Assembly: GCA_000002445.1 (NCBI GenBank)
Contig: CP000071.1
Coordinates: forward strand, 1,536,001 to 1,600,000
Source: Trypanosoma brucei
Lineage: Eukaryota
Direction of reading: 5' to 3'
Length of the DNA: 64,000 nucleotides
Shown here: positions 11,313-58,849 of the stretch, one piece after another
Layout: every line of letters starts with the position of its first letter
Numbering within the stretch: position 1 is the stretch's first letter
Position numbers and translations under genes: made by a program
Notes under the pieces: generated by a model
What the model saw: the letters and a program-made list of their open reading frames with translations, nothing else
Databases searched by the model: none
Told to the model about the DNA's origin: nothing

Positions 11313-12083
11313 ATGCCTGTCTGTGTTCTAGTGCCTCTCCACCAGGCCGATACTCCTGCCGTCACGGAGGAAATGCTTGGGAGCGCTGTGCGTGTCGCCT
11401 TCAATGAATTGCGTATGATTGGCCTGGGATGTATAACATGTTGTTCTGTGTCTTCCGCAAGGCTTCAGCAGGAGGTGCGGCGTCGTTACCCACTGGCTTA
11501 CGACCGTCATATCATGTGTGGGCAATGGGCCGGGAAGTGGCACCATTTTGTGGAGGGAGTGGCAGGGCTACGTTGCTTTTTGTATAGCACAACGGATTAC
11601 GCTGAGGCTGCTCATTTGGCGACACATATTGCCGTATCTGAGTTGCGTTGCTGTTTGCAGGAGGACATCTTTAGCCTCGTGAGGCTTTCAGATGAGGGAG
11701 TGGGTGCTCGACTTCTTTCCGATGTACTCGAACACACAACTCTGAACCACAACTGCTGGCAACTGGCTCTGGAAGCTGTCATCACTTCCCAATTGAATGG
11801 AAGACCCCGCTGGTTGTCCAAAGCAGTAGAGGCACCACACGTCGTGGAGCTCCTCCGACAAATTAATGAACCTCCCTTCCCGGGGCGGAGGCCGGGGAGT
11901 GAGCGACTGAGGCGCTGTGCTGCACACGAGTTGGTGAAACTTCTTTCCGCAAGGTACGAACTCGTACGCCATGTGAGCGGCTCGCAGCTCCGCCGACACG
12001 TAAGTCAATGCCTTTGTACGTGGGGCGCTATTCCTGCTACATTCAATAAGTGGGACGAGGAACGTATTGCGGTTAATGGCTAA
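11313..12083 (+). CDS. Hypothetical protein (256 aa).
   Basis: An ATG-initiated ORF in the same orientation as the rest of the unit, with a pyrimidine tract upstream (about 11030–11110). I recognise no domain. Confidence 0.45.
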   Translation: MPVCVLVPLHQADTPAVTEEMLGSAVRVAFNELRMIGLGCITCCSVSSARLQQEVRRRYPLAYDRHIMCGQWAGKWHHFVEGVAGLRCFLYSTTDYAEAAHLATHIAVSELRCCLQEDIFSLVRLSDEGVGARLLSDVLEHTTLNHNCWQLALEAVITSQLNGRPRWLSKAVEAPHVVELLRQINEPPFPGRRPGSERLRRCAAHELVKLLSARYELVRHVSGSQLRRHVSQCLCTWGAIPATFNKWDEERIAVNG

Positions 12084-13690: not shown

Positions 13691-16600
13691 ATGATGCGCC
13701 GAGTGGCTTCGACTGGAAGCAATGGGGGACATTGTTACGTTGGTTCGTCCTTGTGGGCAGACAGTGTGTATATGGAGGTTTCCTCCATAACTTTACAGAA
13801 GCGTTTCTCCTTCAAGTATGCAACAAAGCTTCAGCACGACGAAATGCGGCAGCCGTATTACATCCATGAAAAACGCTACGGCATCTTTAGTAACGAAAGA
13901 AACATAGCCAAAGCGAGGCGCGGTCTTCCCTTCATCACTCCCCTCTACACGAAGCATATGAATCTTTGGGATACCGACACAGACGCTAGCAACAATCGTT
14001 TCTTCAGAGGCTATTATTATGGCCAGCGGGAGCTGCACCAGTTACTTGGGCGACCCCACAGTCTCGAAGCAACGAACGCTGATGGCAGCAACGACTTGTC
14101 CACGTACGAGGCCAACACAAGCCAATTATACAAGGGCATACCGCGACCTGCTATAACGAATCTACACTATGAGCCCGCGTGGCGCTATACATTATACCAA
14201 GCAGGTGCGCACGGAGCGCAGCTCTCCAACCCACGTAGTCCCTTCACCGCCAAAGTGCTTGGTGACGAATTGATGCAAGTGCGCGACATCAAGAGCGTAG
14301 AGCATTGCAAAGCTTGGTTTGATCGTTTGCAGTACCTCATCAACTTACACTATGAGGCGGTAGGTGACATTGGAGAGTTCAAGTCTCGTCACACCCGACA
14401 CGTGCACGAGTTCTTCGTTGCCTTTCACGATGCACTGAGCAGCCTTGACTTTCGTGATACGTACCTATTCGACCAGTTCAAGGCGGTCCGCCCTCCGGAG
14501 TTATCGGATCTATTTGGCATCTTCCTTGAGATGGAAGCCAACTACGTTCATGAAGACTATTGCCCCCGGTGCAGTCTACCGTACAGCACTACCCGTTACT
14601 GTGGTGAAGGGGATGTGGATACGCCGTTCAGAAAGCACCGTGGGCGATGGGCCCCTCATCAAAAATGGGGACGTGAGTGGTATGACGTTGTGGCACGTCG
14701 TGCAGAGGCCTTATGGTACCGTGCAACGGAGGACCCATACTTTGGGACACCGCAGCATACCCAGCGACAGGCGGAGGCACTGCTGAAGGTGTATGTACAG
14801 GCGAAGCAACGGGGAAAGGCAATTGATTTTATGAATAAGCTACGGGGAAGTGTAGAGTACCTGACAGGGGACATAACCATCACAACAGTCATGCAAGAGT
14901 CCTATGACGCGCTGCTCGACACAACACCTCATCCACACCTTTTAACAAACGGCTTCACACTGGAGAGTGATGCGGCGAAGTACACTGGAGAAGTGAACAA
15001 GGCGCCGCTTTCTCCGTTGCAATTTCGTATCGACATGGAAATGAACAAGTACCGCAGACAGCAAAAAGAAGAAGGTGTTGTTCGTGTTCCACCCGCCTTG
15101 TGGCGTCTGGATACATCTGCAATTGTACCATACAAGGTTGATTCCAAGACAAGACGCATCGTTAACTGGCGTGAGGTAAAGGAGGGCATCGAAAAATCAT
15201 TCCTCTCCGTGGGGCTGCCGAAGGAGGCGTATACTGGCAACGAGTGGCGCGAGATGTTGTACTTGCATGATGTTATTGCTAACCGAGAGGCCAAGGCGGC
15301 GGTGTTGGAGCAGCAGCAGAAGCTTGACCGCGAGAAATTGAAAGCCCGAGAAAGAGCTTCATTGAAGGGTGAGAAAAGCAGCAACAGTGCCAGCAATGGC
15401 ATTGGCATTATATTCCCCGATAAAGATGGCTATCAGGTTTTCTTCGTAGACGAGGCATCCCTTCGACCTTTTGGTATTGGGGCCTCCGGAACACTGTTCA
15501 AAGCCGTTGCCCGCGTGTACCCCTCGCCCGCGGCGGTGCCGTACGACGATCCAGTCCATGGAAAGCAGTTTCTGATTGACACAACAGATGAAACATGCCA
15601 CCTTTTTGGCGGCTTTGAACATGGTGATCGATTACTACTACGTGCTAAGAGTAGTGGAGGTGATGTTGATGGTGGTAACAATAGCAATTGTAGGAATACC
15701 GGTAGCTTTACCGACGAGGAAGAGGAGGTAATAGTGATGGGTGTTAGCACAGAAGGCAGCGATGCGGAACGAATGTTGTGCGCCATGCACGTGGATACTG
15801 GGAAGCAGCGGGAGCGTGGGATTGTTTTCCTTGGAACCGACTGCATTGACATACGCGAGCGATGGGAGTCGGTTCGCTATGCCGCATCTGCGTATGTGAA
15901 GGGGCGTGTGACGTTGTTGGAATCGCAGCGAACAGCGCGAGAAGAATTTATGGGACAGGTGGTTGGTATTCGCGACGGTGTGTTGTTTGTGCAGTGGCGG
16001 CTTCTGAAAGGTGGCGGGAGCGTTCTTGATCGCAGTGTTGCGGTACCTATTGGGGACTCAACTCAAGTGCGTGAACTGTTTGTTGAGACAAAGGTGCTTG
16101 GTGTTGAACCGTTGCAGTCGCCACCCTCGTGGCGAACACCATTTCGGAATGACTTTGCGGAAGAGCGTCTTAAGGAGTTGCAGCGGGCGCCCTTCAAGAG
16201 GGAAAAATATGTCTCTCTAATTCAGGGTAAGTACACACCGAAGGTTAAGAAGTTTGGCTACACTCAGCACACAACTGTGGATGACTTCGAAACGAAGGAG
16301 TATAAAGACCGACTGCTCTCGAAGCAGTTCTTCCAAAACCCACAGGCTTTTGAGGTAGTCCCTGACCGGAACGAGCGCAGTGTGCAGTTTGGTGGTAAAT
16401 GGGAATATCAACGAACGCATGGCCTTCCAACTGTCGATCGAAACGAACTGGAAAACGGGTGGAGCGAGGTAGAACCAATTAGCGACGGCGAGATGAAAGT
16501 GATTGAGCAAGCGCTACGCGACATCAGTGGTCCCCGTCCTGGAAACTTTGTTAAACCGCCTAGCAAAACAAAATCACTTCAGTTGAGCGAAAGTTGGTGG

Positions 16601-19057
16601 GAACCACTTGGGTACGGTTGGGAACAACACAATGAGGAACAGAAAGCGTTGTGCGATGTAACTGAGCAGCGGCTTATTGACGGTTCAAATCTACCATTCG
16701 GGGGGAAATTGCCACCGTTTGGGACTTCATACGGTATGGGTGAACGTATGCGCGCAATCATTGAGGATTACTCGAAGGGATTCGGACTAGGGCCGCACGG
16801 ACACTCGCCGACTCACGACACAATACATTACAACACATTAAATGCTGAAGGTGAGCGTGTGCGTGATTTGGGTTACACTGATGCACTTGGACGTCTTTTC
16901 AGCGAGAAACTTGGGGACAGGGACGTGCACCAGTGGGCTGTGGAATCATGTGCCGATGGCGAAGCGGATGTGAGGCAGCTCCTACTCTCGTTGCACGAAT
17001 GGCGCGAGCGTGGTAGGCCGCCGTCGCTGTTACTGGCTAATGTACTGTCAAAGTATCTTGAGGAAGAGATTGCTGCGTTTAACAAGGGCATTCCTGAAAA
17101 TGCACCCAAGCTTCAACTTGAGACATCGGATGGTACGTTAGCCCACAGCGGAAGCGGTGGGTCGCGAAGTGGAACGATGTGGGCGGATGTTGATCCAACA
17201 ACTTTTGCTTTGCATCAGGCCAGTCAAAGCATCCGCAGCACTAGATGTGATGAACCCTTTATCCTTCACCTTGTGAAGCGTGCGAAGTTGGGCGAATGCG
17301 TCACGAACTTCACAGATACTGCGTACATCGCCCACCTCGAAAGTTCTGTTATCAATGAATTCCACTTGGCCCTGACGAAGCTAGTTGGGAAGGGCATATC
17401 CCCGACCTTGCTTGCGCAGAAAACTGGGCAGTTACACCGTGGTTCGGTGCGAGTGGGTGGAAATGTAGTCCCGTTTGTGAAAAGCCGGGAGTTGTCAAGA
17501 CTCCTGGAGCGTATGGGGCTCACATCGGAGAGCATTGCTGTTATCACGCGCGGGCTTGCCAATTGCCCGGAGCAAGAGTCTGTTGGCGATGACTTCGCAG
17601 TGCCCGTATCGCTGATCCTTTCATGGGACGGTCCCGGGAGCAGCGGTGGCAGTGGCAGTGGTGACCGCCGTCTCAACACCACCGCCGTCCGCAACGAACA
17701 GCAACGTAAGGGTTCTGCGGCTCTTTCTAGTGCCATACGGCAGCTCAGCCAACATCAGAAGCAGCGTGGTAGTGCTTCAGGCAGAGGCTGGCAAAACGAG
17801 GACAAAATGGTTGTTCACGTTCTGGAGGAACTGTCGTTACGAAATGATGGCCTAGTGATGGACATCCAATATGCAATTCGTGAAAACAAGAAAAATCGTC
17901 GCCTACGGTGGGAGTTCGTTACCACACTTCTTCCTGTTTTTGGTGGTAACGAAGCTAAAGTGGAGCAGCTGTACAGTGATTACTGCGACGGGAAGTATGT
18001 GCCCAACATTACGGTAGCTGTAGAAGCTTTCATTGCCTTTCTGCACAACGCTACGCAGCACCCGGAGACGTATTCAGCTTCAGACTACTTCGACATTGAT
18101 GACGGTAAGAGTTCAACTGCTAGCGGCACCGGTGACCAACCCTCTGCTGGACAGTACACCACCCTGAAGCTACTCGATCCGTTGGAGGGTCCATTCGTTT
18201 TTGACAACGTAAAGGTGGAATATATCCAGACTGTGGAGCGATTTAGGCGCCATGGGATTCGGGCTGGCCCAGTTATGGCACCCGCAACCGGATTTATTGC
18301 GGCCAACTGCAAGTCGTTGAACTACTTTACTCGGCGGCAGGAGGAGGTGGTATACGTCACAAATGATTCCGATCAGGGATTGCGGCGGTCGCTAGAAAAC
18401 AGTGCGTATCACAAGACGATAGCGGCCAACCCCGCGTTGCAGTATTTGCTCAAAGCTCGGCGCGGAGCAGCCTTGGTTGAGACGTTTAACCGATTCTTCT
18501 ACCGGACAATGCCTATGCTTAACTTTTACCAGAACGTGCTTAAACACTACTCAGAAACAATTCAACCGCTCCGACAGGCAGCGAAGAGCAGTACACGCGG
18601 TTTGGCGCGGGCACTGGAAAGTGAGCGGTCCGCTGCAATGGAGGAGTTTCGTCGGAACAGCGAGCGATACTGGAGGAATATTATTGAGGGTCGTAGTGTG
18701 GAGCAGGTCGTGCTGGCAAACGGTGAGTCAAATAGGCGGACCGTCGGTGGTGGTGCCGGTGAGCAACTGCAGAAACCGCAGGGCAACCATGATGCCGTAA
18801 GAACGAACTTTACTGGCGAAGCGACAGATGGAAGCAGGAAGGGGCAGAGACAACATCAGCAACCACCGTTGTCGCAACAACAGCAGCATTCCCGTGGCGA
18901 GGGGGAGCGAAGTGCCGTTCATACTTCTCCCCGACAAGGTGGGTCCCGGGGTATGGCGGATTTGCTGTCCAGACTGAATACACCCAAAACGGGATCAGGT
19001 GTAAAGGGGAGCACTGCAAAAAATACCGGTAACAATAGACGTGGACCAAAATCCTGA
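13691..19057 (+). CDS. Very large hypothetical protein of about 1788 aa. The track ORF starts at a GTG at 13595; the first ATG is at 13691 ('MMRRVASTG...').
   Basis: A continuous 5.4 kb ORF. Positions 13595–13690 are purine-rich and read like a 5' UTR, not coding sequence. There are no recognisable catalytic motifs. Acidic and Ser/Gly-rich low-complexity stretches lie toward the C-terminus. Confidence 0.6.
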   Translation: MMRRVASTGSNGGHCYVGSSLWADSVYMEVSSITLQKRFSFKYATKLQHDEMRQPYYIHEKRYGIFSNERNIAKARRGLPFITPLYTKHMNLWDTDTDASNNRFFRGYYYGQRELHQLLGRPHSLEATNADGSNDLSTYEANTSQLYKGIPRPAITNLHYEPAWRYTLYQAGAHGAQLSNPRSPFTAKVLGDELMQVRDIKSVEHCKAWFDRLQYLINLHYEAVGDIGEFKSRHTRHVHEFFVAFHDALSSLDFRDTYLFDQFKAVRPPELSDLFGIFLEMEANYVHEDYCPRCSLPYSTTRYCGEGDVDTPFRKHRGRWAPHQKWGREWYDVVARRAEALWYRATEDPYFGTPQHTQRQAEALLKVYVQAKQRGKAIDFMNKLRGSVEYLTGDITITTVMQESYDALLDTTPHPHLLTNGFTLESDAAKYTGEVNKAPLSPLQFRIDMEMNKYRRQQKEEGVVRVPPALWRLDTSAIVPYKVDSKTRRIVNWREVKEGIEKSFLSVGLPKEAYTGNEWREMLYLHDVIANREAKAAVLEQQQKLDREKLKARERASLKGEKSSNSASNGIGIIFPDKDGYQVFFVDEASLRPFGIGASGTLFKAVARVYPSPAAVPYDDPVHGKQFLIDTTDETCHLFGGFEHGDRLLLRAKSSGGDVDGGNNSNCRNTGSFTDEEEEVIVMGVSTEGSDAERMLCAMHVDTGKQRERGIVFLGTDCIDIRERWESVRYAASAYVKGRVTLLESQRTAREEFMGQVVGIRDGVLFVQWRLLKGGGSVLDRSVAVPIGDSTQVRELFVETKVLGVEPLQSPPSWRTPFRNDFAEERLKELQRAPFKREKYVSLIQGKYTPKVKKFGYTQHTTVDDFETKEYKDRLLSKQFFQNPQAFEVVPDRNERSVQFGGKWEYQRTHGLPTVDRNELENGWSEVEPISDGEMKVIEQALRDISGPRPGNFVKPPSKTKSLQLSESWWEPLGYGWEQHNEEQKALCDVTEQRLIDGSNLPFGGKLPPFGTSYGMGERMRAIIEDYSKGFGLGPHGHSPTHDTIHYNTLNAEGERVRDLGYTDALGRLFSEKLGDRDVHQWAVESCADGEADVRQLLLSLHEWRERGRPPSLLLANVLSKYLEEEIAAFNKGIPENAPKLQLETSDGTLAHSGSGGSRSGTMWADVDPTTFALHQASQSIRSTRCDEPFILHLVKRAKLGECVTNFTDTAYIAHLESSVINEFHLALTKLVGKGISPTLLAQKTGQLHRGSVRVGGNVVPFVKSRELSRLLERMGLTSESIAVITRGLANCPEQESVGDDFAVPVSLILSWDGPGSSGGSGSGDRRLNTTAVRNEQQRKGSAALSSAIRQLSQHQKQRGSASGRGWQNEDKMVVHVLEELSLRNDGLVMDIQYAIRENKKNRRLRWEFVTTLLPVFGGNEAKVEQLYSDYCDGKYVPNITVAVEAFIAFLHNATQHPETYSASDYFDIDDGKSSTASGTGDQPSAGQYTTLKLLDPLEGPFVFDNVKVEYIQTVERFRRHGIRAGPVMAPATGFIAANCKSLNYFTRRQEEVVYVTNDSDQGLRRSLENSAYHKTIAANPALQYLLKARRGAALVETFNRFFYRTMPMLNFYQNVLKHYSETIQPLRQAAKSSTRGLARALESERSAAMEEFRRNSERYWRNIIEGRSVEQVVLANGESNRRTVGGGAGEQLQKPQGNHDAVRTNFTGEATDGSRKGQRQHQQPPLSQQQQHSRGEGERSAVHTSPRQGGSRGMADLLSRLNTPKTGSGVKGSTAKNTGNNRRGPKS

Positions 19058-43639: not shown

Positions 43640-45889
43640 GGTAAGTGCACCTATTAGTGAAAGATGATAGGGAGTGCAGTTGGAAAACTGAATGTTCGCT
43701 CATCCCTCCGTGGCATGCTTCCCCTTTTCTTCTGCACATGCGCGTATGGGTGTTGATGATGTATTTATATATTTAGGAATGATATAACGCATTTTTGCAA
43801 CCCTATCAGAATGTAGGGGGGGGGGGATGTAGTGTTTCATTTGAAACAATACGTGGAGCAACTAGGGAGGGTAGTGCAGAAGCAGGAGAGGGGAGTGATT
43901 GGCTCGCGTGTGTTGTACTTCTGCGGGTTGGTGTTGGAGTGGGCTTTGAGTGGGTCGCCCTCCAGTGCAATTAGCGCATTTGTGGATGCACAGGGCAGTC
44001 GCGTGCATGTGTGCATTGGCATAGTAGATCTTGCGATTGTGGTGTTAAATGCAAGCACAATCTTATATGTAACCCCTTAAAACACCACGCTGTAGATAAC
44101 AATCAAAAGGTTTACTTCATCCAATGTCATCATTTATTATTTATGATCCTTGTTTTTTTTTCCCCGTCTGTGTGCGTGTGATTGTGTCTTCTGGCCCCCT
44201 CAACTCGGATTTGTCACGTAATGAGCTCTTTTTCTTTTTGATTAAACAGAGCCGTTCGGAACCCCCTCCCCTGCGTATGCTGCTGGCCGGCTGATCCTTG
44301 ATCACATATACAAGCTGAGGGGTGAGGGCACACAGTCATAATCACGGAGGGAAATATGATAAAAAGCATAATAAGATAGTTTATGTTGTGGGCGAACCTG
44401 CTGGTACCCCAACAGTCGTTGAACATAATTATGCTTCGCGATGTGGACCTCAAAACTCTCCTATTCTTCTTTTTGTAGTCTTTTTTTTAGTTTTTCGTCC
44501 TGTCTTCCTTCTTGAACTGTTAGGTTGTATCGGGAAATGTATATTTAAATGGCACAAGTGCAGCAGGAAATGGAATGGAACGGTAGGGGCGAGGGAAGGG
44601 AAGGGAAACGAAGGAAAAGAGAGCGGAATATTATGTGGCGAAGGGTGTTGGGACCAAATATTCCTCCTCGTGGGGGCATATGTCAAGAGAAGGTGGGAAA
44701 AGAGTGAGAGAAAAAAGAAGAGGAAAAGCAATATTAGTGAATGATTGGTTCTTGTCACCTGCCTGCCTTACGCGCATATAGGTGCCTACTAAACATTTCC
44801 TATTTGCCTAACTTTTACACGTGTTGTCCCACCTGATGAATGTGGACGAAGAATGAAAGAAGTTGGTGAATAAATTTTCTTCTTTTTTTTTTTGAAAAAA
44901 AAAGTGATGGGCAAAGGAAATTTTGACCCTTTTAACTCACTGTTTGGCATTCGCTTCTCCATCTTTTGTTATCTTTTTTCCTCTATCATTTTCCGCACCT
45001 TTTCTTTAAACGTGCGTATGAGAGTGAAATATTTTCCCTTGTTTCACCCCCTCCCTTCCTCTACAGCCACCACTGTTTCCGTCTTGTGGCGCAGTCACTT
45101 CGCGGGGTTTCTCTCCCTTTTTTGTTTTTTTCTTAATATCCCATGTAAAGTTTGCCGTAACACTTCTGGTTGTTTCTCTTGTTTTGCAATTGTATCTTTG
45201 TTCCTGAGGGAGATTAGCCTTGTTGTTTCGTTACCTTACTGTATGTGACCTTTTGGTGCTACTCTTACCACGGCTTTCGGTGCCGGTGTGTTTTTTTTGT
45301 TTTCGTCACCCAGGTGCATGAGTTGTGGAAGCGGGGGAGCGGCTGCTGCTCTGCAATACAAAAGCAGTGTTGCAATGCTGAACACATAATTGTAATACCA
45401 TGTGAAATCCCACTTATCCTGTTGCAGGTCACACCTTTGGTTTTTGCGTTGGGCTACGAAGTTATTGTTTCTTCTTGTTTTTATTTTCCCCTTCCGCCTT
45501 TCGTTTGCGCTGCTCACAAACACGCATGCATGTAATTTTAAAGTGGTGCGCACCAATACCGGCACTCGTTGGACAGAAGGGGAAGTGGAGGAAGGCGTCA
45601 GATTACTTCCTCTTTTCCCTTTTTGCCACATACACGCACACACAGAGTGCTCGGTCCTGCGGAAACGTGGTGCATCTGTCTTTGTAGAAGGACGGGGGAA
45701 AGGTTGCGGAAAGAAGATAAGGAGGTAAGAAAGTATCGTATAACACCGACACCAGGGACTGGAAGAAACAAAAGAAAAAGAGGGCGTTGAGGAGGCGGTA
45801 TACGCGTGCGAATACACGCAAGATAACAATCGTACACGCGCGCGCACACACACACACATATATATATATATCTGCACTGGTGTGGAGCT

Positions 45890-48469: not shown

Positions 48470-49141
48470 ATGGAAGGTCCTTTCCTCAGCCGCTCCATTC
48501 AATACGTGGAGCGGTGGCTCGCTGAGATTGTGGCAACCAAAGGCACACGAGCAGCGGCAACAGGAAGCAGCGAGAAAGCCGTGGCGCAAAAGCGAGGGAA
48601 GGCGACTGCCACTGCGGCTGCTGAAACGGGTGCCACTAGTATGTCAAAGTGTCGTTTTGTTGTCGGCAGGGTGAATAGCGTCCGCCCGCATCCCGAGAGT
48701 CAAAAACTTTACATTGAGGAGATCGACTTGGGAGAGGAGGGGGGAAAATGCCGCACCATCCTCAGCGGTTTGCAGGAATACGTCAAGCAAGAAGATTTTC
48801 TCAACCGCCTTGTGCTCGTCATCGCCAACCTTGAGCCACGGAAGATTGGTGGTATACCATCGGAGGGAATGGTCCTCTGCGCCTCATGCAATGATGAGGG
48901 CTCGCGGTCAGTTGTGTTGCTGGACGTACCTGAGGGGACGCCGGTTGGTGAGCGCATTTTGTTTGAAGGTCATGAGGGGCCATACGAGCCCGTACTGAAA
49001 AAGAAACTCGCCAAACACTTCGAGGAGGTGGCAGCAGAACTGCGCACAAACGATAAGGGTGAAGTGGTATGGCGTGACATGCCATTTCGGACGAGTTGTG
49101 GGATCATCACGGCAAGCATCCCCAACGGTAGCGTTTCATAG
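48470..49141 (+). CDS. Protein with an EMAP-II / Myf / Arc1p-C-type OB-fold tRNA-binding domain (223 aa).
   Basis: The ATG was checked. 'FVVGRVNSVRPHPESQKLYIEEIDLGEEGGKCRTILSGLQEYVKQEDFLNRLVLVIANLEPRKIGGIPSEGMVLCAS' matches the Myf-domain pattern (vVGkV.ev.kHPdAdkLyv..vDvGee.pr.IvSGl..y...e.l.gr.V.vv.NLkp.k..Gv.SeGMlLca). Confidence 0.75.
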   Translation: MEGPFLSRSIQYVERWLAEIVATKGTRAAATGSSEKAVAQKRGKATATAAAETGATSMSKCRFVVGRVNSVRPHPESQKLYIEEIDLGEEGGKCRTILSGLQEYVKQEDFLNRLVLVIANLEPRKIGGIPSEGMVLCASCNDEGSRSVVLLDVPEGTPVGERILFEGHEGPYEPVLKKKLAKHFEEVAAELRTNDKGEVVWRDMPFRTSCGIITASIPNGSVS

Positions 49142-51204
49142 ACTCGGCATGTATTTGGCTTATCTCTGTGATTGTCATTAATAACAGCCAATGAAGCAAG
49201 ACGATCTGATGGGGCGGAGGCACTAGAAGGGTAGGAAAGTAAGAAATGTGTGAAGTGACGGAGGGACTCCTTCCACGCTATTTGTTTGATAAACCTAATA
49301 GTTTCTGCTCAACCACGTAAATTTGAATGGCGAGGACGCCCCAACTGTCCGTACGTGCATACACAGGCAGTGGGAACCGTTTGTGGGCAGAAGGAAGCAA
49401 AGCGGCCACACCCCATTCGCAATCGCGCACATTCCACCAAATGTGGCCCACGCCGCCGTCATTCCCTTTTAGGTCTCACTCACTCACTGACGCAACGTTA
49501 CCGGCGTTTCTGGTACTCTTCTTGCATTCTACTCTTTTCTTTTCGTCTCATCTCGGTAAATTTGCCGATAGAAAAGGAAAAGCCATGACGCATCAAAAAG
49601 AAAAAAGGGGAGGTACCGATCATACGTGTGAAAGCGGTTTGGACACAATTGGGATCGCAGTATGTGCCATCCTTTTTGGAGAGAAGGGAACGAAGGGTGA
49701 CTGCCCTAAAGGGTTTCCAATGGCCATACGCCGTTTGTTTTCTGCTCCGTGAATGAATCCGCGGGCTCAACACACTGACATTGTGACGGATGGAAGCCCG
49801 CTAACCCTCATGGATAGGGGGTTATGGAGCTGGTAAATATCTGTTAGTAAGCGGCAAACACGCAAGGGATGTAAGCAAAAGTGTATATATATACATATGC
49901 ATATATATGTATTAAAAAGTGGCCAATGTGTTTCGAGATCCGGAGTCAAGGGAAGTGCAATCGCCAAGTCAACGTCGCCCGAATCTTCCCCTCCCTAAAA
50001 AAAAAAAAGCAACAACAACATAAGTGCTTGTAGGCGCTCCCTTTGGTTTCTGCGCCGCGCTGGTACTGCTGTGGGGTTCCTCGCTCATTTCCCTTTCTTG
50101 GGTCATTTCCTGTCATGCTTTCGTTCTCGGAACTCTTCTTCTCTATTTTTGGTGTGTCGCTCTCAAAGTTTCCCCCCACCAAACGCACACACATGTACCC
50201 TCGTAAACGCAAAAGCGCATCGCCACCTTTAGTTTCCTTCGCCCATTTCCCTTTTCTGGATACATCTCTAAAACAAGCGGGCAGACGGCAGTTCCATAAC
50301 GGCTGCGCGCACGCAAAATAAATGCGACTCCACCCGGTGCCTCGTTAAGTAGTAGTCCACTCCAAACCATAATGCCTGTTTGCTGTTAAGGGTGTCAGCG
50401 TGTTTAGGATGTGGAAAAGTGTTAAATGTCACGTGGGGCGACTGAATGGGGGATCAGAAGAATTGCAATAGAGGGAGGGGAGGGAATATGGTAGTGATTC
50501 AATGTCCTTTGTCCAGGGGAGGGGAAGTTGATGTTGTTAAATTATCTTAACTTGATCGAAGTGCGGGCCTCCTCGGCGGAGGAATCGTTACTGGTTGTTG
50601 TTTCGGGTAGTGATGCATTTCCTCAACGATTTTTTTTTGTCAAAGTCCCTGAAGTGTGACGACCCTTCGTCGCTCCCCGTCCTCTGCAAGATTCCTCTTC
50701 CTTATTTCTGCTTGTCCTGCGTCTGCCAGCCGCACTTCGGTTGCCTTACAGCCCCGCAAACCACACACTCATTTCTTTTGTTTCGTCCCCGGGCATCCTT
50801 CAATTGGCGCCTTCACTGATAAGGTGCATCGCACGTGGAGGGTTATTGTTTTTGTCTAGTTGAGCGTTCCCTTTCCCATGCAGATACCAAAACCCGGCGC
50901 AAAACTGCTGTTTGTTGCCGTTGGGCTGCCGTTGCAACAGCCCTTTCCACGACACCGAGGTTCGCGAAGCGGGCCCCGTGCCGGGGCAAATTTCCCCATG
51001 CCCAAATCAGCAAAAAACATGTTCCTGTTGTGTCCGTTGTTTCCAGGCGCGGTGCACAATTTTGTGTGGTATTTCACTCTGTTGTTACCCATGTTAGTCT
51101 CTCTCTCCGTCACCGACTTTGGCTCCGAAAGGACATTTGTGCTAGCGCGCGGAACCTTTTCCGCTGGGGTCGTGCTTTTTTTAGTCGCCAGCAACCCGCA
51201 GCGC

Positions 51205-51410
51205 TATTTCCAAAATGAGGAAAAGGCTCCTGAATTTCCGCCCCTCCACTTGCGGCAACTGTGCCGACAGGTGAAGATGTCACACTTTCCCCCCAGGGCC
51301 CACGGCGCATCCGTAGCCGTGCCCCTCACTGGTCGCAGTAACTTTGACCCCTCGAGATCAAATGTTGAGCGCATTGCTCTTTCCCTGGGCCGCCGAAAAG
51401 AATCGGCTCG
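51205..51410 (-). ncRNA. Candidate Pol III-transcribed small RNA gene, identity unresolved. It sits divergently oriented about 95 bp upstream of the tRNA-Arg.
   Basis: Trypanosome U-snRNA and 7SL genes use the A and B boxes of a divergent upstream tRNA gene about 95–97 bp away. The minus strand starting near 51408 reads 'AGCCGAUUCUUUUCGGCGGCCCAGGGAAAGAGCAAUGCGCUC...GGAGCCUUUUCCUCAUUUUGGAAAUAGCGCUGCGGG'. It opens with a 5' hairpin (GCCGA/UCGGC). It contains an Sm-site-like 'AUUUUGG' flanked by T-runs. The overlapping + strand ORF 50860–51465 does not look protein-like. The boundaries are guesses. Confidence 0.25.
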
Positions 51411-51503
51411 TTGGAGGATTGGCCAAACGAAGCGGACGAGCGGTCGCATGCTTTTCGGCTACTAAAGTTCATTTAGAAATATATAACGGCACGCGGCTCT
51501 CAC

Positions 51504-51575
51504 GTCCGTGTGGCTCAATGGAAGAGCATCTGACTACGGATCAGAGGGTTGCAGGTTCGAATCCTGTCACGGATG
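51504..51575 (+). tRNA. tRNA-Arg, anticodon ACG.
   Basis: Hand-folded cloverleaf. Acceptor stem GTCCGTG/CACGGAT with G:T at position 1:72. D arm GCTC-AATGGAA-GAGC. Anticodon arm TCTGA-CTACGGA-TCAGA, with T33 and anticodon ACG. T arm GCAGG-TTCGAAT-CCTGT. Discriminator G. The anticodon arm 'TCTGACTACGGATCAGA' matches eukaryotic tRNA-Arg(ACG). Confidence 0.9.
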
Positions 51576-51576
51576 C

Positions 51577-51580
51577 TTTT
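51577..51580 (+). terminator. Pol III T-run (TTTT) immediately 3' of the tRNA-Arg.
   Basis: '...CACGGATGcTTTTcc' begins 2 nt after the discriminator base. Confidence 0.5.
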
Positions 51581-54500
51581 CCCTCTTCAGGCGTCGCAAC
51601 CTCAAACACGCGCGAGCCTCCGTCTACTTTCCAGTAAATTTAACTTTTGCGAGCTCTTGGGTCCAATGGAAACACCGGTGCCCTTTTGATTTGAACCTTG
51701 GTTTTAATGAAACGTGTTTACAGCTTCTGGTACAAAAAGACGTGCGGGTCATGCCTTTCCCTCAGCCTCATCATTTTCGCGATGCTTTAAGGAGGAGCAA
51801 AAGAGGGAGACGGACGCCATTAAGGAGCGGTGTCCCCGGTGCCTGGTGACTCGTGGTGGGAAGTGAAGAAGGGACTAATTAAACCTTCTTCTGGAAAATG
51901 GTGACTGCCGCATCGGCTGTTTATTAACCCCTGTTTCGCATCCTCACATACGCCCCTCGGCTTCGAGGATGCGAAGCGGAGTTGCAGCCAGATCATTATG
52001 GCGCTTATTATCCTCCACACTCTACGGGGAGTCGACCCTCAGGAGAGGTTCCTTCACAAAATTCAATGAAAAAGCTGTACAAAAAAGGGAAGGAGGCGCT
52101 CCCGGGCGCGCCTTCAGAGTGATGAGGAAGAGCAAAGGGTTACCCAAACCCTGTTAATGTTTGCATTCTTACCATACGATGCGAACTGTTATTCTTTGTA
52201 ACTAAATAACCCTAAAAGTTTTATTGGTAGCGAGCGGCAAACGTCCTTTTTAAAATATGATGCTTGATTTACGCTGCTTGACTGTGTTTCGCCGGCCCTT
52301 TAGGATTGTGGTTTCGAAGAGGCACGAGTCCCCAATGCCGCCACTGAGCCGTTTACAAAAATATTTGAGGGATTGGAGAAATATATCCAAAAAGGAAAAG
52401 GCGTCACCAACGCTGTGCCTTTGAAACGGGCCGAGGCGCGGATACTTTTCCGTGTCCCCGACTCTCTTGGGTTTGTCTCAGTATCAGCAGCTGAACGCCG
52501 AAAGTTTGGGATTTATCCCTCAGGACTGGAAGCTGCCCACAGCAATAAAGGCGTGGTGGTAGACAGGCGTTACGTGCAAACGGGTTGGAGCACACTCAAT
52601 TCAGCGAGACATGCAGTGCGGTTTCCTATTCCATTCGGAAGAAAAAAATATACTTACACGCATGCAGCGGAACCCGTCATCAACTCTTACCTGGCGCACT
52701 TTCTGTCGTTCCGGAGCCGCGGTTTTTCCATCACTAACATTCCCATCACATAATCCCAACCTTTCAATTGGGATGAAATATTGCTGTCATTTTCAATAAT
52801 AAATAAGTTATCTTCCATTGACGCTCGACTAATGTTGCTAATGACCTTCCCTACAAGCAGTACGAAAACAAGCGATGTGACACATTTGTAACAGGGAATT
52901 ACGACAGGACCATCGCGTTTGCACTTGGATGAACGTTCAACTCCCCTATTCCATCCTCACCACACACACACACACACACACCACGGCAGCAGTGGTATTT
53001 GGAAAAAAAAACATGCAAAGTGGTACCTCCGCAAAAAAAAAATAATAATAAGAAAAACAAGTGAGGAAGGAGCGGAGGGAAAAGAGAGCAAGGGAAAGAT
53101 ATAAGTTAATCCAACCACATTCTCTTCACACACCCTATTTTTTTCCTTCGTTAAGTCGACCTCATCTTTACTTCAATTTCTAAGGCAAGGGAACAAATAA
53201 CTTAATTGGAGGCGTCTGCACCTCCCGTCATGTGTACCGGTACCACAGCGGTTTAACAAAAACAACAAAATTAAGTAAAGTCTCCACGGGTGAATGGCGA
53301 TCTGAGTCTTTCACCTTATACATGGCGGAGGCTAACCTGGCGCCCGCCCGTCAATATAAAAAAGGGATGCGTACGCACATATACACCACATACATACATA
53401 TACATAAATATACATAAAGTAAGCACGTAAGTGTAGAAATTTACATATATTTTAATTATATATGATGCCCAACAGACGACGATAAAGGCGGCTACACCGA
53501 CCGCCATAACACACACGCACACGCACACGCACACACACACACACAATAATAACAATAAAGACGGATAAAAACATGGAATGAAGCGCAGTAAAACAGTCGC
53601 ACCTCGCGCGTACAATACGGGCGAACAAATATAAACAGCGGGAACATTCCTGAAGATGCTTAGGGGTTGAATTGGTGCAACGAGTTTTTCATCAAGCAGC
53701 GATAAGAAAGTTTTTTTTTTGCTTGAATGCAATGAAAAAAATTTATGGACGTGTGCTTAAACAACATAGGAGAATAATTGGCACAAATCTCAGGAGGTTA
53801 CGGTGTGTGTGTGGAATTTGTATTCGACTATGAATCTTAAAAAAAGGGGGGACTATGAAGTGGTTAAACGATTAAAAAAAAAAATTCGAATGCCGGGGCT
53901 CATTTGCAACATGGTACCAGAATTAACTGTTGCTAACTCATCGGTGCCGTGCAGGCTTTTACAAATTCGATATTTCCCATTACTTTTGTTTTTTTTATTT
54001 CTTCAATTTCCCTGTTTCACCCTTTGTTTGATCCAACCACCAGATTATCATTTGTTTTGTTAAGTACGATGAAGCACAACGCTAATAGTAGAAAGAAGGA
54101 AAAAAAAAAGAACGATACAATAAATAAAGGTAGATGCGAATAAACACATGCGGAGTGCATGCTTTTTAAAAAAAAGGAAAAGAGGGAAGGATATGTGGTA
54201 ACGGAGGTTCTGATGTAAAAGAAGCGGATGTCACCACCATCAGGTCTCACACGCCTCACCCCAAGCGGTTGCTGCTCTCGCAATATTCCCTTGAAGGAAC
54301 ACAACCGGTAGATGTAATATAAATCGCCATGGACTGCTGCGCGCATGTGGCTATGATCCTTTTTAGTGACGGCTTTCAATTCCCCGTAGCGGCTGTATTG
54401 AAGGAGGAATAATATCGCCGGTATGCCACGTCTGGCTCGCCGTTGGGTAAACCGCGGCTGCTTAAAGTCGGTTATTGCAATTCCCGCCGCGTTGGGTAAC

Positions 54501-57472
54501 TGACAGCGTCCAGTACAAGTGGTGAGGTTCCATCTTAATGTCAGCCCCCGTGCGCATACCAGCGGTGTTGCTTACATAAAATAGATGTCACGTGACTCTT
54601 GGAGTTTAGCGGAGGCAGTGACGGTTCTTCGGTTTTACAACTCTCACTCTCATTTCGTGATTCGTCAATGGCCGCTATGGGTAACGAGTGCAGGAACTTT
54701 GGGAAGAAAATTTCTGTTACCGTTGTCGTTGTAATAATAGTGGTGGTGCATTTTTTTCTCCTACGGGGTTTCTGTGCGTTCTCAGGGTAAGCAGTGGAAA
54801 TACTGCACTGATTGAGCGACCCCCGAGACGCCTTATTAAGTTCAGTGGAGCTTAATTTACATCCCACGCGGCGGTCCCGCGCTTCAGATGTGTGCGGAAA
54901 GTTAACAAAGAACTCAGGTATTTCCACATCGACCGCGTTGGTATGTGGAACCCCAGGTTTGTGGCGCCGCTGCTCTGAATCTTGGCAGTGAGACGGAAGC
55001 GCCGATGGCAGTGACGGGCACACCATGCCACCGTTATCCAGTGGCTTTTCCATTATCACCTTGCTTTTTCTCAAGTCCCCGCTGCCACTTTCCCCTCAGC
55101 TTCAGCCACCGAACCTCACCTTAAGGTGCTTTCCAATTGTTTGCTTTGTGAAAGTGATGCGTTCGGCACCTTCCTAGAAACAGTGTTACCACCACTATTT
55201 TTTTTTTCCCGCCCGATATGTTGCTTCAATACCCCACTTGGAACCACGCTGATCCCTACCTGATGCGCTCCTGTTACCCAAAGAACGTACCCAACTTACA
55301 ATTGAAGGGATGGAGAATGATAGTGACAATAATAACAGTGATATCGCTTTAACATAACATTTCCGAAAGTTCCACACACTTTAAAGGAGGTGAGAGCGCT
55401 TCATGGCACTGGTGCAATATATATTTGCAGGAAGGAAAGCGTTTGACGGTGAAAAAGGGACAAAAACGCACTGTTTACTAACGAACGCCCGGAAAAAAAA
55501 TGGTGAAGTGAATACCCCAGAAGAAAAATACGATATAGTCGCCTAAAGATATAGTGGCCTCAAGCCGTTAGGATGTATCGTCACCGTGTGACTGAAGGTT
55601 AAGCAAAACCCCACACTTGTGCTCGGTCACATACAGAAACAAGCATACCACCGTGCGGTTACCCGATCCAGCCGCACCTGGAGTAAAATCAATGGCACGG
55701 AGGGTAAAAAAAAAAAATGGCGACATAAACAAGAAACGCACAAATGCGAAGCAAAACGACAGCAACAACAACAACACCGTCAAAAATACCAAAAGGGAAC
55801 GGAGTTGATGGAAGGATAAAGAAGCAGAAGGTGAGGGGCTTCGAGATTGGACAATTTTTGTCCATCACTAGGGCCCCTACAGCACTGACCACTATATGAA
55901 ACTAATTCTGGTCAGTAGCAGAGGTTATAGTGGCAAGAGGACTTAACACCAGCAGATGGCACTATGTATCCGAGTTTATACACGTGTGTGTCAAATCGGT
56001 GTCGTTATCAAATTACTTCTCTAGACTTTACCACACTTGCAGGCAGCATAGCGTCATGATCGGTGCCTGCTGGCCGATTGCACCCCCCTTCTTCACTGTG
56101 TGCGGTCAAGAGGGAAGGTACTAGGAACAAATTGATGACTAAACTTTCACCTCTACCGTCATCGCCATTGTGTTGGTTGGAACTTTTTTAACCTTTCCAT
56201 CACTACCGGCACGCCGGCGCCCTCTACTTCTCTTTGGGTTCTCATCTATCCGAATGTGTGGCTGCCGCCGGAAAGTAAAGCGGCAGCACATCAGAGCTGT
56301 TGAGGATCACGGGCATTAAATCCCCACGACAGAACGCAAAAGGCACCTAAACGTCCCTTGCGCCGATGAAATGACTTACGCAACACACCCAAAAAGATCG
56401 CGAACGCGCGTGAGTCCAGTACATTGGGTACTGAAAATGTGCGACGCCCACAACTATATCACGGAGATGCCCCTACGACAGCATCCCAACTCCCTTGCAG
56501 AGAACGAGCAATGACATTCACCATAAATTTGAACTCAAAAAAATCAATTGGACTCTCCAATGTCTCGCAGTTAAAGTCCGCCAGAGCACTCATATGGACG
56601 CGAGAGACCCTCCCTTCTCACTGTGGTTGCTCATGCCTTGGGGAAGGTGTGAGATCCCCTGGCGGCGGCGAGGGGGAAATTGTAGTTGTTGTTGTGGGAG
56701 ACATCCATGTGGCCGTCTTCTTAGAGGCTAATAAACGAGAGCAACTTTCTCTCCTTGGTGGTGGAACGTCCATGAGTTCTTCGCACGCGGGGACAGGGCT
56801 GAATGGTGTGTGTGGAGTTAATTCCGTTGGGGTATAAGACGGTAAGCACACGGAAGGCATGTCCAAGTCAACGGCTTCAACACGCGGCTGACGCCTTATC
56901 ACGCGAGAGGGAGCAACTGCACAGGGGCTCGGCACTGCCTCCTGCGCTGATGTCATGTGGCTGTGCTCCAGAACTTTGTCGTCTTGCATTGTACTTGAAG
57001 GCAGTGACGTGGTGACGCCCACGACCACAACCATCCTGCGTGCAGAGCGAGGCATTGCGTGAGCAAGGAAAGGAAGAAAAGTAAACGCAAGTAAGTGCCG
57101 AGGCATGACTCACAAAATTTTGTTGAGGAAACAAATTTCCCACATCCCATCTGGCGTATATCCAAAAGCGACCAAGCACGAAAGTAGTTTTGCCCTTTCA
57201 GGCACTCTAGTGCTCAAGAAAAGGCGAATAACCGAATATTTCCCATTAGTTGCCGTCCTTAGTTGTGGTCGCAACCAAAGCCGAGGTACAAGTGGTTGCG
57301 CCACTTCCCGTCGTGTGATTGGACCATACGGAACATAAAACCCTTATATTGTAATACAAAACGGATTACGCGAGTACACTTACATTCATACAATGGCTTC
57401 TGTTGTGTGTCTCCCTCCCCCCACCTTTTCACACAACGGAAGTCTCTACCGTACAAACAAAATCGCCACAAC

Positions 57473-58849
57473 TCAGGCACTCGGCGCCAACAGGTAATCG
57501 AACACCTCTTTTGGTCCAAGCATGACGCTACGAAGGAAACCACGTGAAACAAACGGGGTGTCATTCCTATCATAGTTTCCACCTTGTCCGCGATATCCTT
57601 TGCCACGTCGCTGTGATGTGGCGCCGTTACCGCTACCTGCTTGAGGTAGGAAACGCTGCGCATAGGAACACACGATGTACGTGGCGGTTCCGAACATAAC
57701 AACACGAACAACTAACCGACCAATTGCATGGTACTGCAACTGCAGTTGATGGTTAATGCGCTTCTTTATAGCGCTTGGTCTCCAGTCCCATATGCTCGGT
57801 GGAACGTAGGCGTCAGAGTGTGCATTTGCTCGACTATCTTTCGACTCCTCCTCTTCCTCTCGTCGTCGGCGGATTTCCTCGCCCTCAACCTCAACTGCCC
57901 GCATTCCATCACCAAGAATAACTCCAAGCGAGCGAAATTGATCTCTACTTAGTGCACAGTAGTTTATATCAAGACTATCATAAACACCGACGTACTCCAA
58001 AATTTGACGCTGCAATAGTTCCACACCAAAAAGAAATTGTGCCTCCGTGATGGGAATTAACTCCCCAGGTTCTTTTCCCACGTGGACTGCAAAACACTGC
58101 TCCACGTATTTTTTCCCCCAGAACCCATCCTTTTTCGCTATGTCTGCGTACCGCTGAACGGCCCACAAGCTATAGTCCCGGTATCGCACAAGATAATACT
58201 CCTCCTCGTTAATGGAGCATAACCCCATACGCAACTGCTCCTTGAAAGTTTTGGAGGGTACGTTACCCTTGAACCCTGTTGGTCCCCGTGGCATTCTAAC
58301 ATTACTTTTGAAGCTATCCGCATCCGCACCGGTTCCGGCCTTGGGAGCATCTCCGTGCAAATACGCACTACCGCCGTCAAATAGGTTGCGTTCCATCTGC
58401 AAAAGCGCCGCCGACGCTTTGGAAAGTCTGAATACATCATGCGAGATGTCAATGTTGTCACCCGTGCAGGTGGAAAAGTTACACTGCAGTTCGGCCAGTG
58501 GCCGACTGTGCACGAGAACGTACGTACGGTTGGCCGCGGTTCGTTTCTGTATCGCTTCCAGAAGACCAACCTCATTCCGAGTGGCGTCAGGAACCCAAAA
58601 CGTCTCGGAAATGTCTTGTGGGCGGACCAGCGAAGTGAGCGCGAATACGCTTCCCCCACCCTCTGCCGCAATGGATGACGTCGATGCTGTTGGGGTTGCT
58701 GTGAAAACGCGTGGATCCCTCTGTCGGACGATAATGGGGCGTCCAATGGAAGACGGCGTGAAAGAGTGCGGCTGTGACTGTTGCACAATTGCTTGCCCCT
58801 CTGAGTGCACCACAACGGAGTGTTGCGACCACTGTGGTGAGAGGGACAT
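57473..58849 (-). CDS. Hypothetical protein (458 aa) with a hydrophobic C-terminal segment (possible tail anchor or TM).
   Basis: The ATG was checked (cat at 58847–58849). This is the first gene of the minus-strand unit after the strand-switch region. The hydrophobic segment is 'HAIGRLVVRVVMFGTATYIVCSYAQRFL', followed by a basic, G-rich tail. No family is recognised. Confidence 0.55.
   Translation of the reverse strand: MSLSPQWSQHSVVVHSEGQAIVQQSQPHSFTPSSIGRPIIVRQRDPRVFTATPTASTSSIAAEGGGSVFALTSLVRPQDISETFWVPDATRNEVGLLEAIQKRTAANRTYVLVHSRPLAELQCNFSTCTGDNIDISHDVFRLSKASAALLQMERNLFDGGSAYLHGDAPKAGTGADADSFKSNVRMPRGPTGFKGNVPSKTFKEQLRMGLCSINEEEYYLVRYRDYSLWAVQRYADIAKKDGFWGKKYVEQCFAVHVGKEPGELIPITEAQFLFGVELLQRQILEYVGVYDSLDINYCALSRDQFRSLGVILGDGMRAVEVEGEEIRRRREEEEESKDSRANAHSDAYVPPSIWDWRPSAIKKRINHQLQLQYHAIGRLVVRVVMFGTATYIVCSYAQRFLPQAGSGNGATSQRRGKGYRGQGGNYDRNDTPFVSRGFLRSVMLGPKEVFDYLLAPSA

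Follow-up and report, generated by a model that had tools for sequence, protein, structure and literature searches.

The closest described systems to the locus that we report here are the RNAPIII-associated cTTRs of Trypanosoma brucei (Siegel 2009; Mueller 2018 annotation; Staneva 2021), in which two transcription units converge on a tRNA gene, as they do here. Convergent strand-switch regions hold 34.6 % of T. brucei tRNA loci (PMC2695483), in keeping with the expectation of a sequence-only reading of this DNA that such regions often harbour tRNA genes, and the mean distance between a CDS and a Pol III gene in T. brucei is 2473 bp (PMC2695483). Pol III genes are overlapped by 20 of 154 TTRs, with RPC1 enriched there, and a dedicated factor set is enriched specifically at these Pol III-containing termination regions; 133 of the 154 annotated termination regions are without Pol III genes (PMC8559703). 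On Leishmania major chromosome 3, a lone tRNA gene likewise lies between convergent units, and both units were reported to terminate in the region of that tRNA (Martinez-Calvillo et al. 2004, as cited in PMC2695483), but the species, the tRNA and the chromosome are different. In Leishmania, moreover, read-through at convergent regions follows the loss of base J, which is not seen in T. brucei when J or H3.V is lost. The siRNA-producing convergent units of T. brucei are loci of the same type; every one of the 49 convergent units surveyed accumulates DCL2-dependent small RNAs, which have been attributed to overlapping transcription (Tschudi 2012, PMC3447711; Reynolds 2016, PMC4721609). Little overlap would be expected here if a Pol III roadblock stood right at the junction.

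Extent of the strand switch

The window that we analyzed is a stretch of 64,000 nucleotides from T. brucei (contig CP000071.1, positions 1,536,001 to 1,600,000). In its ORF map, the long ORFs as far as 49141 all read on the + strand and the minus strand carries the CDSs from 57473 onward, as the sequence-only reading had said. The long minus-strand ORFs before 49141 are either nested within larger + strand ORFs or have junk-level codon-usage scores, an example being the ORF at 45236-45877 with -0.064 bits/codon. The flanking genes are conserved and syntenic, and the + to - switch in coding strand between two long unidirectional arrays is confirmed. The features around the switch are listed here by their positions in the window.

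48470-49141, + strand: tRNA-binding-domain protein (PF01588), 223 aa, last CDS of the + polycistronic unit
49142-51503, + strand: non-coding tail of the + unit (3′ UTR and spacer), T-over-A skewed
51504-51576, + strand: tRNA-Arg(ACG), Pol III-transcribed (ARAGORN; Rfam 66.3 bits), with A box 51511-51521, anticodon 51536-51538 and B box 51554-51564
51577-51580, + strand: T4 run directly after the tRNA, Pol III terminator, read from the sequence
51581-51788, no strand: compositional switch point, with the minima of cumulative A-T skew and purine excess at 51788
51789-54540, minus strand: non-coding DNA past the last gene of the minus unit, with an excess of A over T on the + strand and with both microsatellites
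52961-52981: (CA)10.5 microsatellite (tandem-repeat search)
53509-53545: AC-rich array (tandem-repeat search)
54541-55074, minus strand: conserved hypothetical XP_847365.1, last gene of the minus unit (annotation, orthologs, codon positions)
56261-56287, no strand: 8-bp hairpin, in intergenic/UTR space between two minus-strand CDSs
56618-57106, minus strand: conserved hypothetical XP_847366.1, 162 aa as annotated (annotation, orthologs, codon positions)
57473-58849, minus strand: conserved hypothetical CDS, 458 aa, with orthologs across trypanosomatids

The product of the last + strand gene matches a T. brucei-group protein at 100 % identity and has orthologs across trypanosomatids; judging from its chromosome and domain, the gene is very probably MCP2 (Tb927.8.5330, a gene ID taken from PMC12021450). 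On the other side, the 458-aa CDS had been read as the first minus-strand gene bordering the gap, a position that we reject for it because two small CDSs lie between it and the gap. The sequence-only reading saw 8.3 kb without protein-like ORFs and was to fall if a bona fide CDS were found inside; there are two, both on the minus strand (54541-55074 and 56618-57106) and both annotated in TREU927 as "hypothetical protein, conserved" (RefSeq). Therefore, the gap between CDSs is 49142-54540, or 5399 bp instead of the claimed 8331 bp, and it is this interval that is free of protein-coding genes, while 49142-57472 is not. Since both CDSs are on the minus strand, the DNA from 54.5 to 57.5 kb is part of the minus-strand transcription unit, which leaves a zone of 5.4 kb, of ordinary size. 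The description of the zone as unusually large also fails on the distances from the tRNA to the neighbouring CDSs, which at 2362 and 2964 bp (2.4 and 3.0 kb) are near the published average of 2473 bp. The size of the strand switch was overestimated because small, fast-evolving, low-complexity trypanosome genes resemble junk ORFs, and the chief value of our analysis is this correction of a reading that placed the switch rightly. Its interpretation as a convergent strand-switch and termination zone with a tRNA broadly stands, but not its extent or, as described below, the extra RNAs, the structured segment and the hairpin.

Within the gap, the ORFs of 201, 141 and 127 aa in the + tail have junk-like codon scores, with no homologs at the orthologous loci and no Pfam match, and no conserved ORFs were found in 51789-54540. 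The tRNA-Arg that had been noticed in the region is an intact Pol III gene. It fits the cloverleaf, carries the ACG anticodon and internal A and B boxes, and is followed by a T4 run; the T runs that end Tritryp tRNA genes average 4.9 nt with a minimum of 4 (PMC2695483). Across four T. brucei-group genomes we observe no variable column in the tRNA but up to about 5 % variation in its flanks, and the most variable stretch among these genomes is 50500-51499, with 47 substitution and 38 indel columns. Identity to the tRNA copies of T. vivax and T. theileri is 96-97 %.

Of the three tRNA-Arg(ACG) genes in T. brucei, one is on Chr5 and another in a ten-tRNA Chr8 cluster, so by elimination the tRNA in our window is Tb427v9_001293300 in cTTR_36 (Lister 427) and locus chr08-IV of Padilla-Mejia. 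Table S8 of Staneva et al. 2021 places the solitary Chr8 tRNA-Arg(ACG) inside the annotated cTTR_36 and has it bound by BDF7, ELP3b, PHD2, PHD4, TFIIS2-2, DOT1A, TRF and TBP (PMC8559703), and it is from publications that we take both the cTTR label and the factor binding. The earlier proposal of a Pol II termination zone with a tRNA agrees with the published cTTR_36. When the locus is compared with other RNAPIII-associated cTTRs, its size and spacing are typical and nothing substantive differs, the tRNA being matched by elimination and not by coordinate mapping. We are highly confident that the locus is an ordinary, already catalogued convergent termination region of T. brucei chromosome 8. 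The feature is already known, as part of a well-described class that is present in published tables, and nothing new is hidden in the gap.

The tRNA gene and the switch in composition

The skew minimum at 51788 is 212 bp from the 3′ end of the tRNA. We observe the same proximity in T. vivax (98 bp, in a gap of 8.8 kb) and T. theileri (276 bp, in a gap of 6.3 kb), despite the fact that the relative position of the tRNA in the gap differs among the three species and that the tRNA is inverted in T. vivax. By a rough estimate, the joint probability that skew and tRNA coincide by chance across the three species is about 3e-4. The AT skew is -0.073 in the + side tail (49142-51503) compared with -0.145 for + unit intergenic DNA, and it is +0.088 across 51577-54540, but intergenic skew is a mere proxy for the transcribed strand because it reflects polypyrimidine and UTR composition. 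The coincidence of the same tRNA with the switch point in three Trypanosoma species is cheap sequence-level support for Pol III genes marking the ends of Pol II units.

From the composition and the published table, we infer that Pol II terminates at the tRNA. The + unit would extend from its last gene (stop at 49141) into a non-coding tail of about 2.4 kb, and the minus unit would run past 57473, through 56618-57106 and 54541-55074, and into a tail of about 3 kb, with the tails of both units abutting tRNA-Arg(ACG). The tRNA would be occupied by Pol III machinery (TBP, RPC1 and other published TTR factors) in termination-type chromatin, with H3.V, H4.V and base J presumably marking this particular site, and it may act as, or mark, a barrier that would stop Pol II from either side. 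The tRNA is not a requirement for termination, because 133 of 154 T. brucei termination regions are without Pol III genes.

Those 133 regions are also what would be expected if the tRNA is only a passenger, with chromatin (H3.V, H4.V, base J, PJW/PP1-type machinery) setting termination and tRNA genes gathering at the unit boundaries, the sole location in which Pol III genes avoid collisions with Pol II. We consider this somewhat unlikely here. In its favor, the orthologous T. cruzi junction is without a tRNA and has just an H/ACA snoRNA, and the Leishmania junction after the same gene holds tRNA-Gln instead, which suggests turnover and not a fixed element. In T. brucei, losing H3.V or J also changes internal termination and the output of siRNAs. 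Among the H3.V/J-responsive genes in supplements in text form, we found no IDs near Tb927.8.5330, a weak null because the gene IDs of the locus are themselves deduced. A passenger could sit anywhere in a gap of 5-9 kb, so it is less expected that in each of three species the skew minimum should come to within 100-280 bp of this gene, whatever the position and orientation of the tRNA, and the enrichment of dedicated factors specifically at Pol III-containing termination regions also argues for a role of the tRNA itself.

A stronger form of the barrier proposal is that tRNA-Arg(ACG) has been kept as the meeting point of the two units since before the salivarian/T. theileri split, regardless of its orientation or distance, and that the T. 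cruzi copy is a relic with A and B boxes only that was co-amplified with its neighbours. We regard this stronger form as unlikely. If it were true, selection for a boundary would have acted on occupancy by TFIIIC/TFIIIB and not on tRNA production, and the gene would resemble the tDNA or "extra TFIIIC" insulators of yeast.

Two small genes on the minus strand

The gene at 54541-55074 is annotated as 170 aa with a start at 55053, the longest ORF being 177 aa (ORF177), and its product XP_847365.1 carries the motif RRRKKxTTTxxTTTTxTxIxxP. XP_847366.1, the product of the 162-aa ORF (ORF162), is a distant tandem paralog of XP_847365.1. ORF177 has syntenic orthologs in T. cruzi (Tc381, E = 5e-10), T. 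vivax (Tv203) and T. theileri (Tt364), and ORF162 has them in T. vivax, T. theileri, T. cruzi and T. conorhini, where its ortholog is always the first gene downstream of the ortholog of the 458-aa gene. The order of 458-aa gene, small gene 1 and small gene 2 is kept in T. theileri and T. cruzi and is partly confirmed in T. vivax and T. conorhini. The ortholog alignments contain common motifs, and in about five species codon positions 1 and 2 of both ORFs are far better conserved than position 3, which is near saturation; for ORF177 the cross-species identities are 0.43-0.63 at positions 1/2 and 0.26-0.31 at position 3. Most identical residues use different codons (for example, 39 of 56 in the T. 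brucei-T. cruzi comparison). By their syntenic orthologs and this purifying selection, the two small minus-strand ORFs are judged to be real protein genes, and their expression in T. brucei is predicted.

Against expression as T. brucei proteins are the codon scores, which within T. brucei are uninformative or junk-like, and an excess of nonsynonymous over synonymous changes. The scores are 0.022 and -0.020 bits/codon, as in junk ORFs, compared with 0.037-0.183 for 17 solid genes, and the nonsynonymous to synonymous counts between T. brucei-group genomes are 6:2 and 5:2 for ORF177 and 2:0 and 3:0 for ORF162. Both ORFs could thus be decaying or non-expressed relics in T. brucei, with the non-coding termination zone reaching 57.4 kb, a reading that we find improbable. 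It would fit with the lack of a Pfam domain in either ORF and with an ORF177 that does not reach half the length of the orthologs in T. cruzi and T. theileri, but the T. vivax counterparts are likewise short (203 and 107 aa), and a search of 51789-54540 for out-of-frame remnants of the C-termini of the longer orthologs found none. A mutation of the annotated ORF162 start codon in two of the genomes also favors the relic reading, but translation probably begins at an internal Met near 56956. Relics would also hardly be expected to keep their motifs and codon positions 1/2, or to remain intact, free of stops and indels, in four T. brucei-group genomes whose adjacent non-coding DNA is indel-rich. 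Even if the ORFs were untranslated, the switch point would be unmoved, since the composition is of minus-strand sense down to about 51.8 kb.

Folds and repeats in the region

Room for unannotated non-coding RNAs had been suggested, and Rfam, folding, and cross-species and within-species conservation give this no support. Trypanosomatid tRNA genes can have a divergent Pol III companion (U3, U6, 7SL, U2, vault RNA), a known rule (PMC3273796, PMC4950102), and the tRNA here resembles those in having intact A/B boxes and being a possible promoter; the known U3/7SL/U1 genes are in another Chr8 cluster (PMC2695483). A hidden Pol III small RNA that diverges from the tRNA and lies about 95-105 bp upstream of it, or a structured RNA at 52430-52620, is highly improbable: the Rfam covariance scan of 49000-58000 (E <= 10) matched the tRNA alone, and 52430-52620, previously called structured, has a weaker MFE than the shuffled mean on both strands (z = +1.02 and +0.63). 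Upstream, the GC-rich minus-strand sequence with T runs at about 51412-51212 folds at z = -0.94, with 34 of 200 shuffles folding as well, and its T4 run at 51399-51396 is only about 10 nt past the canonical start position. With 16 variable columns in 292 bp (5.5 %), 51212-51503 varies more than any other part of the region, and the upstream regions of T. vivax and T. theileri do not align with it. Short motifs are common to T. theileri at a similar distance, but the 9-mer among them is expected by chance (about 0.6 occurrences). Thus, unlike at the tRNA-dependent genes, we find here no conserved, structured companion on the opposite strand with a T-run end, and the upstream DNA is hypervariable.

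The perfect 8-bp-stem hairpin is where it had been placed, with GCTGCCGC at 56261-56268 pairing with GCGGCAGC at 56280-56287 around an 11-nt loop, but it has no special status and is at chance level. It is one of nine hairpins in the region that have a perfect 8-bp stem and a loop of 3-20 nt, compared with about 3 in mononucleotide shuffles (maximum 7), an excess that is largely due to TA-repeat palindromes, and longer inverted repeats are also present. The (CA)n and (ACACGC)n microsatellites that had been noted are both found, at 52961-52981 and 53509-53545.

Convergent junction and its tRNA gene

In an ORF map of the window, long ORFs occupy the + strand as far as 49141 and the minus strand from 57473 onward, as the sequence-only reading had described. 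That reading took the interval as a convergent Pol II termination zone hosting a tRNA gene, which is broadly right, whereas its extent, its lack of ORFs, its size and its extra RNAs proved wrong or unsupported. The actual gap, from one flanking CDS to the next, is 49142-54540 and measures 5399 bp, rather than an unusually large 8.3 kb. From the tRNA it is 2362 bp to the CDS on the left and 2964 bp to the one on the right; the published T. brucei mean distance from a flanking CDS to a Pol III gene is 2473 bp (PMC2695483), so the size of the gap is ordinary. The features at the left edge and at the tRNA are as follows.

Last + strand gene and tRNA gene
48470-49141, + strand: last + strand protein, tRNA-binding domain PF01588, 223 aa, 100 % identical to a T. 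brucei-group protein
51511-51521, + strand: A box of the tRNA, normal
51554-51564, + strand: B box of the tRNA, normal
51577-80, + strand: T4 run, directly after the tRNA

The 223-aa protein has orthologs throughout the trypanosomatids and occurs as well on chromosome 8 of T. b. gambiense (FN554971) and in other T. brucei-group assemblies, from which we fetched three loci (L001-L003). Judged by its chromosome and domain, it is very probably MCP2, Tb927.8.5330 (PMC12021450). The gene that follows it in T. theileri and T. cruzi, of 254/255 aa (L007:13099-13863; L008:12719-13486), has its T. brucei ortholog at 11313-12083(+), 37 kb upstream and still in the + unit (40-43 % identity, E about 1e-50), and the GT64 glycosyltransferase gene that neighbours it in T. 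theileri is missing from the window; both reflect rearrangement of the end of the + unit in particular lineages.

The tRNA-Arg(ACG) at 51504-51576, + strand, was called by ARAGORN and by Rfam (66.3 bits), and has no variable column among four T. brucei-group genomes; in T. b. gambiense its locus is at about 1.375 Mb of FN554971. Chromosome 8 has one single-tRNA locus, chr08-IV, and convergent strand-switch regions host 34.6 % of T. brucei tRNA loci (Padilla-Mejia et al. 2009, PMC2695483). Of the 154 Pol II termination regions annotated in Lister 427, 20 overlap tRNA or snRNA genes, and these 20 carry RPC1 and eight specific factors; Table S8 of the same study gives a solitary 73-nt tRNA-Arg(ACG) at Chr8_core 1474462-1474534, in cTTR_36, with 'yes' for all factors (Staneva et al. 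2021, PMC8559703). There are three tRNA-Arg(ACG) genes in T. brucei (PMC2695483), and the other two lie on Chr5 and in a ten-tRNA cluster on Chr8 (PMC8559703); thus, by elimination, the window tRNA is the cTTR_36 one, and the locus is an already known and already annotated feature.

Base composition switches across the gap, and the cumulative A-T and purine skews both reach their minima at 51788, 212 bp beyond the tRNA.

Intergenic AT skew by segment
1-48469, + unit intergenic DNA: -0.145
49142-51503: -0.073
51577-54540: +0.088
55075-56617: +0.153

The kilobase just upstream of the tRNA, 50500-51499, is a local divergence hotspot among the four T. brucei-group genomes. Counts per kb are 47 substitution and 38 indel columns here; substitutions otherwise number about 10-20, and 3-6 in CDSs. 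The haplotypes of this kilobase form two groups, the window with L003 and L001 with L002, and it may be unconstrained spacer past the last poly(A) site. Against T. vivax, T. theileri and T. cruzi, the tRNA is the sole blastn match in non-coding DNA. Neither a self-blast against the window nor Pfam gave any dispersed repeats or relics of retroelements in the gap, and tblastn gave no pseudogene remnants there of GT64, the 254/255-aa gene, the T. theileri 536-aa protein or a T. vivax 439-aa ORF.

The microsatellites and the 8-bp hairpin are at their reported positions. Further non-coding RNAs had also been proposed, and a covariance scan of 49000-58000 (Rfam, E <= 10) returned only the tRNA and low-complexity noise, while on either strand of 52430-52620, described as structured, shuffled sequence folds better than the real one. 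Trypanosomatid Pol III small-RNA genes are placed divergently from a tRNA, about 95-105 bp upstream of it (PMC3273796, PMC4950102). A companion of the U3, 7SL or vault-RNA type upstream of this tRNA was rejected, with no Rfam match and no conservation across species: the candidate, 51412-51212 on the minus strand, folds unremarkably (z = -0.94), meets a T4 run about 10 nt past its expected start and does not align with either T. vivax or T. theileri, and it falls within the region's most variable kilobase (16 variable columns in 292 bp). The vault RNA TBsRNA-10 is excluded at the tRNA only indirectly, by this hypervariability. The region's longest perfect inverted repeat, at 51935-51975 (11 bp, TTCGCATCCTC / GAGGATGCGAA, 19-nt loop), is about 150-190 bp from the skew minimum; by our estimate, chance alone would give about 0.08 repeats of this kind in the region, and blastn found none of it conserved in other species.

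Small minus-strand genes inside the claimed gap

The interval was said to contain no protein-like ORFs, and here synteny, codon positions and RefSeq annotation contradict the claim, since they identify two conserved CDSs.

54541-55074, minus strand: ORF177, XP_847365.1 (170 aa as annotated)
56618-57106, minus strand: ORF162, XP_847366.1

Both are RefSeq 'hypothetical protein, conserved' in TREU927, with sequences identical to TREU927 and T. equiperdum entries. The first clue was a called T. vivax gene that matches the 177-aa ORF. Comparison loci were fetched by anchoring on orthologs of the 458-aa gene (57473-58849, minus strand), and in T. theileri and T. cruzi this gene is followed on its own strand by a 157-172-aa gene and then by a 364-381-aa gene, an order confirmed in part by T. 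vivax and T. conorhini. ORF162 matches the first downstream gene (107 aa in T. vivax, 172 aa in T. theileri, 160 aa in T. conorhini, 157 aa in T. cruzi), and ORF177 matches the N-terminal 130-150 residues of the second (381 aa in T. cruzi, E = 5e-10; 203 aa in T. vivax; 364 aa in T. theileri), with shared motifs in the alignments such as RRRKKxTTTxxTTTTxTxIxxP.

First and second small gene in the comparison loci
T. theileri: L012:12304-12822 and 14129-15223
T. cruzi: L013:11965-12438 and 14189-15334

Identity at codon positions 1 and 2 is 0.43-0.73 across all ortholog pairs; at position 3 it is 0.25-0.36, except in the two closest pairs (0.42 and 0.60). Identical residues are mostly encoded by different codons, and this pattern shows selection acting on the protein and not on the DNA. 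Codon-usage scores of both genes in T. brucei are junk-like, and since codon usage fails to separate these two real small genes from junk ORFs, we did not use it as coding evidence. Neither gene has a Pfam domain, and between strains the non-synonymous changes outnumber the synonymous ones; both genes are conserved across Trypanosoma yet fast-evolving in T. brucei.

Both small genes carry a RRxPRV(D/E)xx(E/D)L(D/E)xPS motif, then a basic stretch and then a threonine run (TTTTxT), and this common architecture probably marks the two families as tandem paralogs of ancient origin. In T. theileri and T. cruzi the second gene encodes 364-381 aa, versus 170-203 aa in T. brucei and T. vivax. A frameshifted C-terminus of ORF177 was rejected: no C-terminal remnant of the longer orthologs turned up in other frames. 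Short forms occur in T. vivax as well. For ORF162, two T. brucei-group genomes have lost the annotated ATG by mutation (57106 T to C) and carry a 175-aa annotation instead, and a minus-strand polypyrimidine tract, 57081-57065, lies within the annotated N-terminus. The annotated start is probably too far upstream: orthologs start only 15-26 residues ahead of the conserved VIRRQPRV motif, which suggests an internal Met near 56956 as the real start.

The + strand ORFs of the gap (201, 141, about 126 aa and others) have no counterparts in the compared loci and no Pfam match. T. b. gambiense has three hypothetical + strand genes called in its gap, of 101, 101 and 195 aa (L001:10858-11163, 11446-11751 and 12400-12986), corresponding to window positions of about 49327-51455, with no homologs and no Pfam match; the coordinates of the last give no clean translation. 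The T. vivax call of 439 aa (L005:12516-13835, + strand) likewise lacks homologs and Pfam matches, and composition there indicates minus-strand sense. These + strand calls are probably annotation artefacts.

Probable termination at the tRNA gene

Two further species have the same tRNA-Arg(ACG) linked to this junction: in T. vivax the tRNA is inverted and near the left gene, and in T. theileri it lies near the right one. The skew minimum is 98 bp from the tRNA in T. vivax (8.8-kb gap) and 276 bp in T. theileri (6.3-kb gap), and under uniform placement the joint probability of the coincidence is, as a rough estimate, about 3e-4.

The most likely reading is the textbook termination picture, with both units stopping at or next to the tRNA. 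Pol II from each unit would continue beyond its last poly(A) site, through a tail of 2.4-3 kb, and would then be stopped at or beside the tRNA gene, which would be occupied there by Pol III machinery and set in termination-type chromatin. Gene geometry, tRNA integrity and the compositional switch are established here, and factor binding at the window tRNA is taken from publication; that Pol II actually stops at this site, and that histone variants and base J are present there, is inferred. As the main alternative, chromatin would do the terminating and the tRNA would be a tolerated passenger, and the three-species coincidence of tRNA and skew minimum argues mildly against it. The biology of H3.V and base J at convergent regions, and the siRNAs made there, have been described (Reynolds 2016, PMC4721609; Tschudi 2012, PMC3447711). 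IDs near Tb927.8.5330 are absent from the H3.V/J-responsive gene lists in text form, a weak null because the IDs were inferred.

The junction in T. cruzi and Leishmania

The orthologous T. cruzi junction (L013:15335-17524) has no tRNA and instead has an H/ACA snoRNA at L013:16465-16536(+) (Rfam TB10Cs1H1, 82 bits). T. cruzi also has tRNA-Arg-derived relics (L010:12502-12573 and 17878-17949; L008:12504-12575 and 17488-17570) that match the T. brucei tRNA at 79 % identity; their A and B boxes are intact and the anticodon arm is disrupted. They were rejected as tRNAs, being uncalled by ARAGORN and, even at E <= 1, by Rfam. The relics sit beside amplified genes: each is followed, about 215 bp on, by a copy of a 255-aa gene, in a repeat unit of roughly 5 kb that also holds a surface-protein-like signal-peptide gene.

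Leishmania martiniquensis likewise has the tRNA-binding-domain gene as the final gene before a convergent junction, here of only 835 bp (L015:10727-11560) and with a different tRNA, tRNA-Gln(CTG), at 11079-11152(-). The partner unit is rearranged, with a WW-domain gene on the opposite strand that in T. brucei lies upstream on the same strand.
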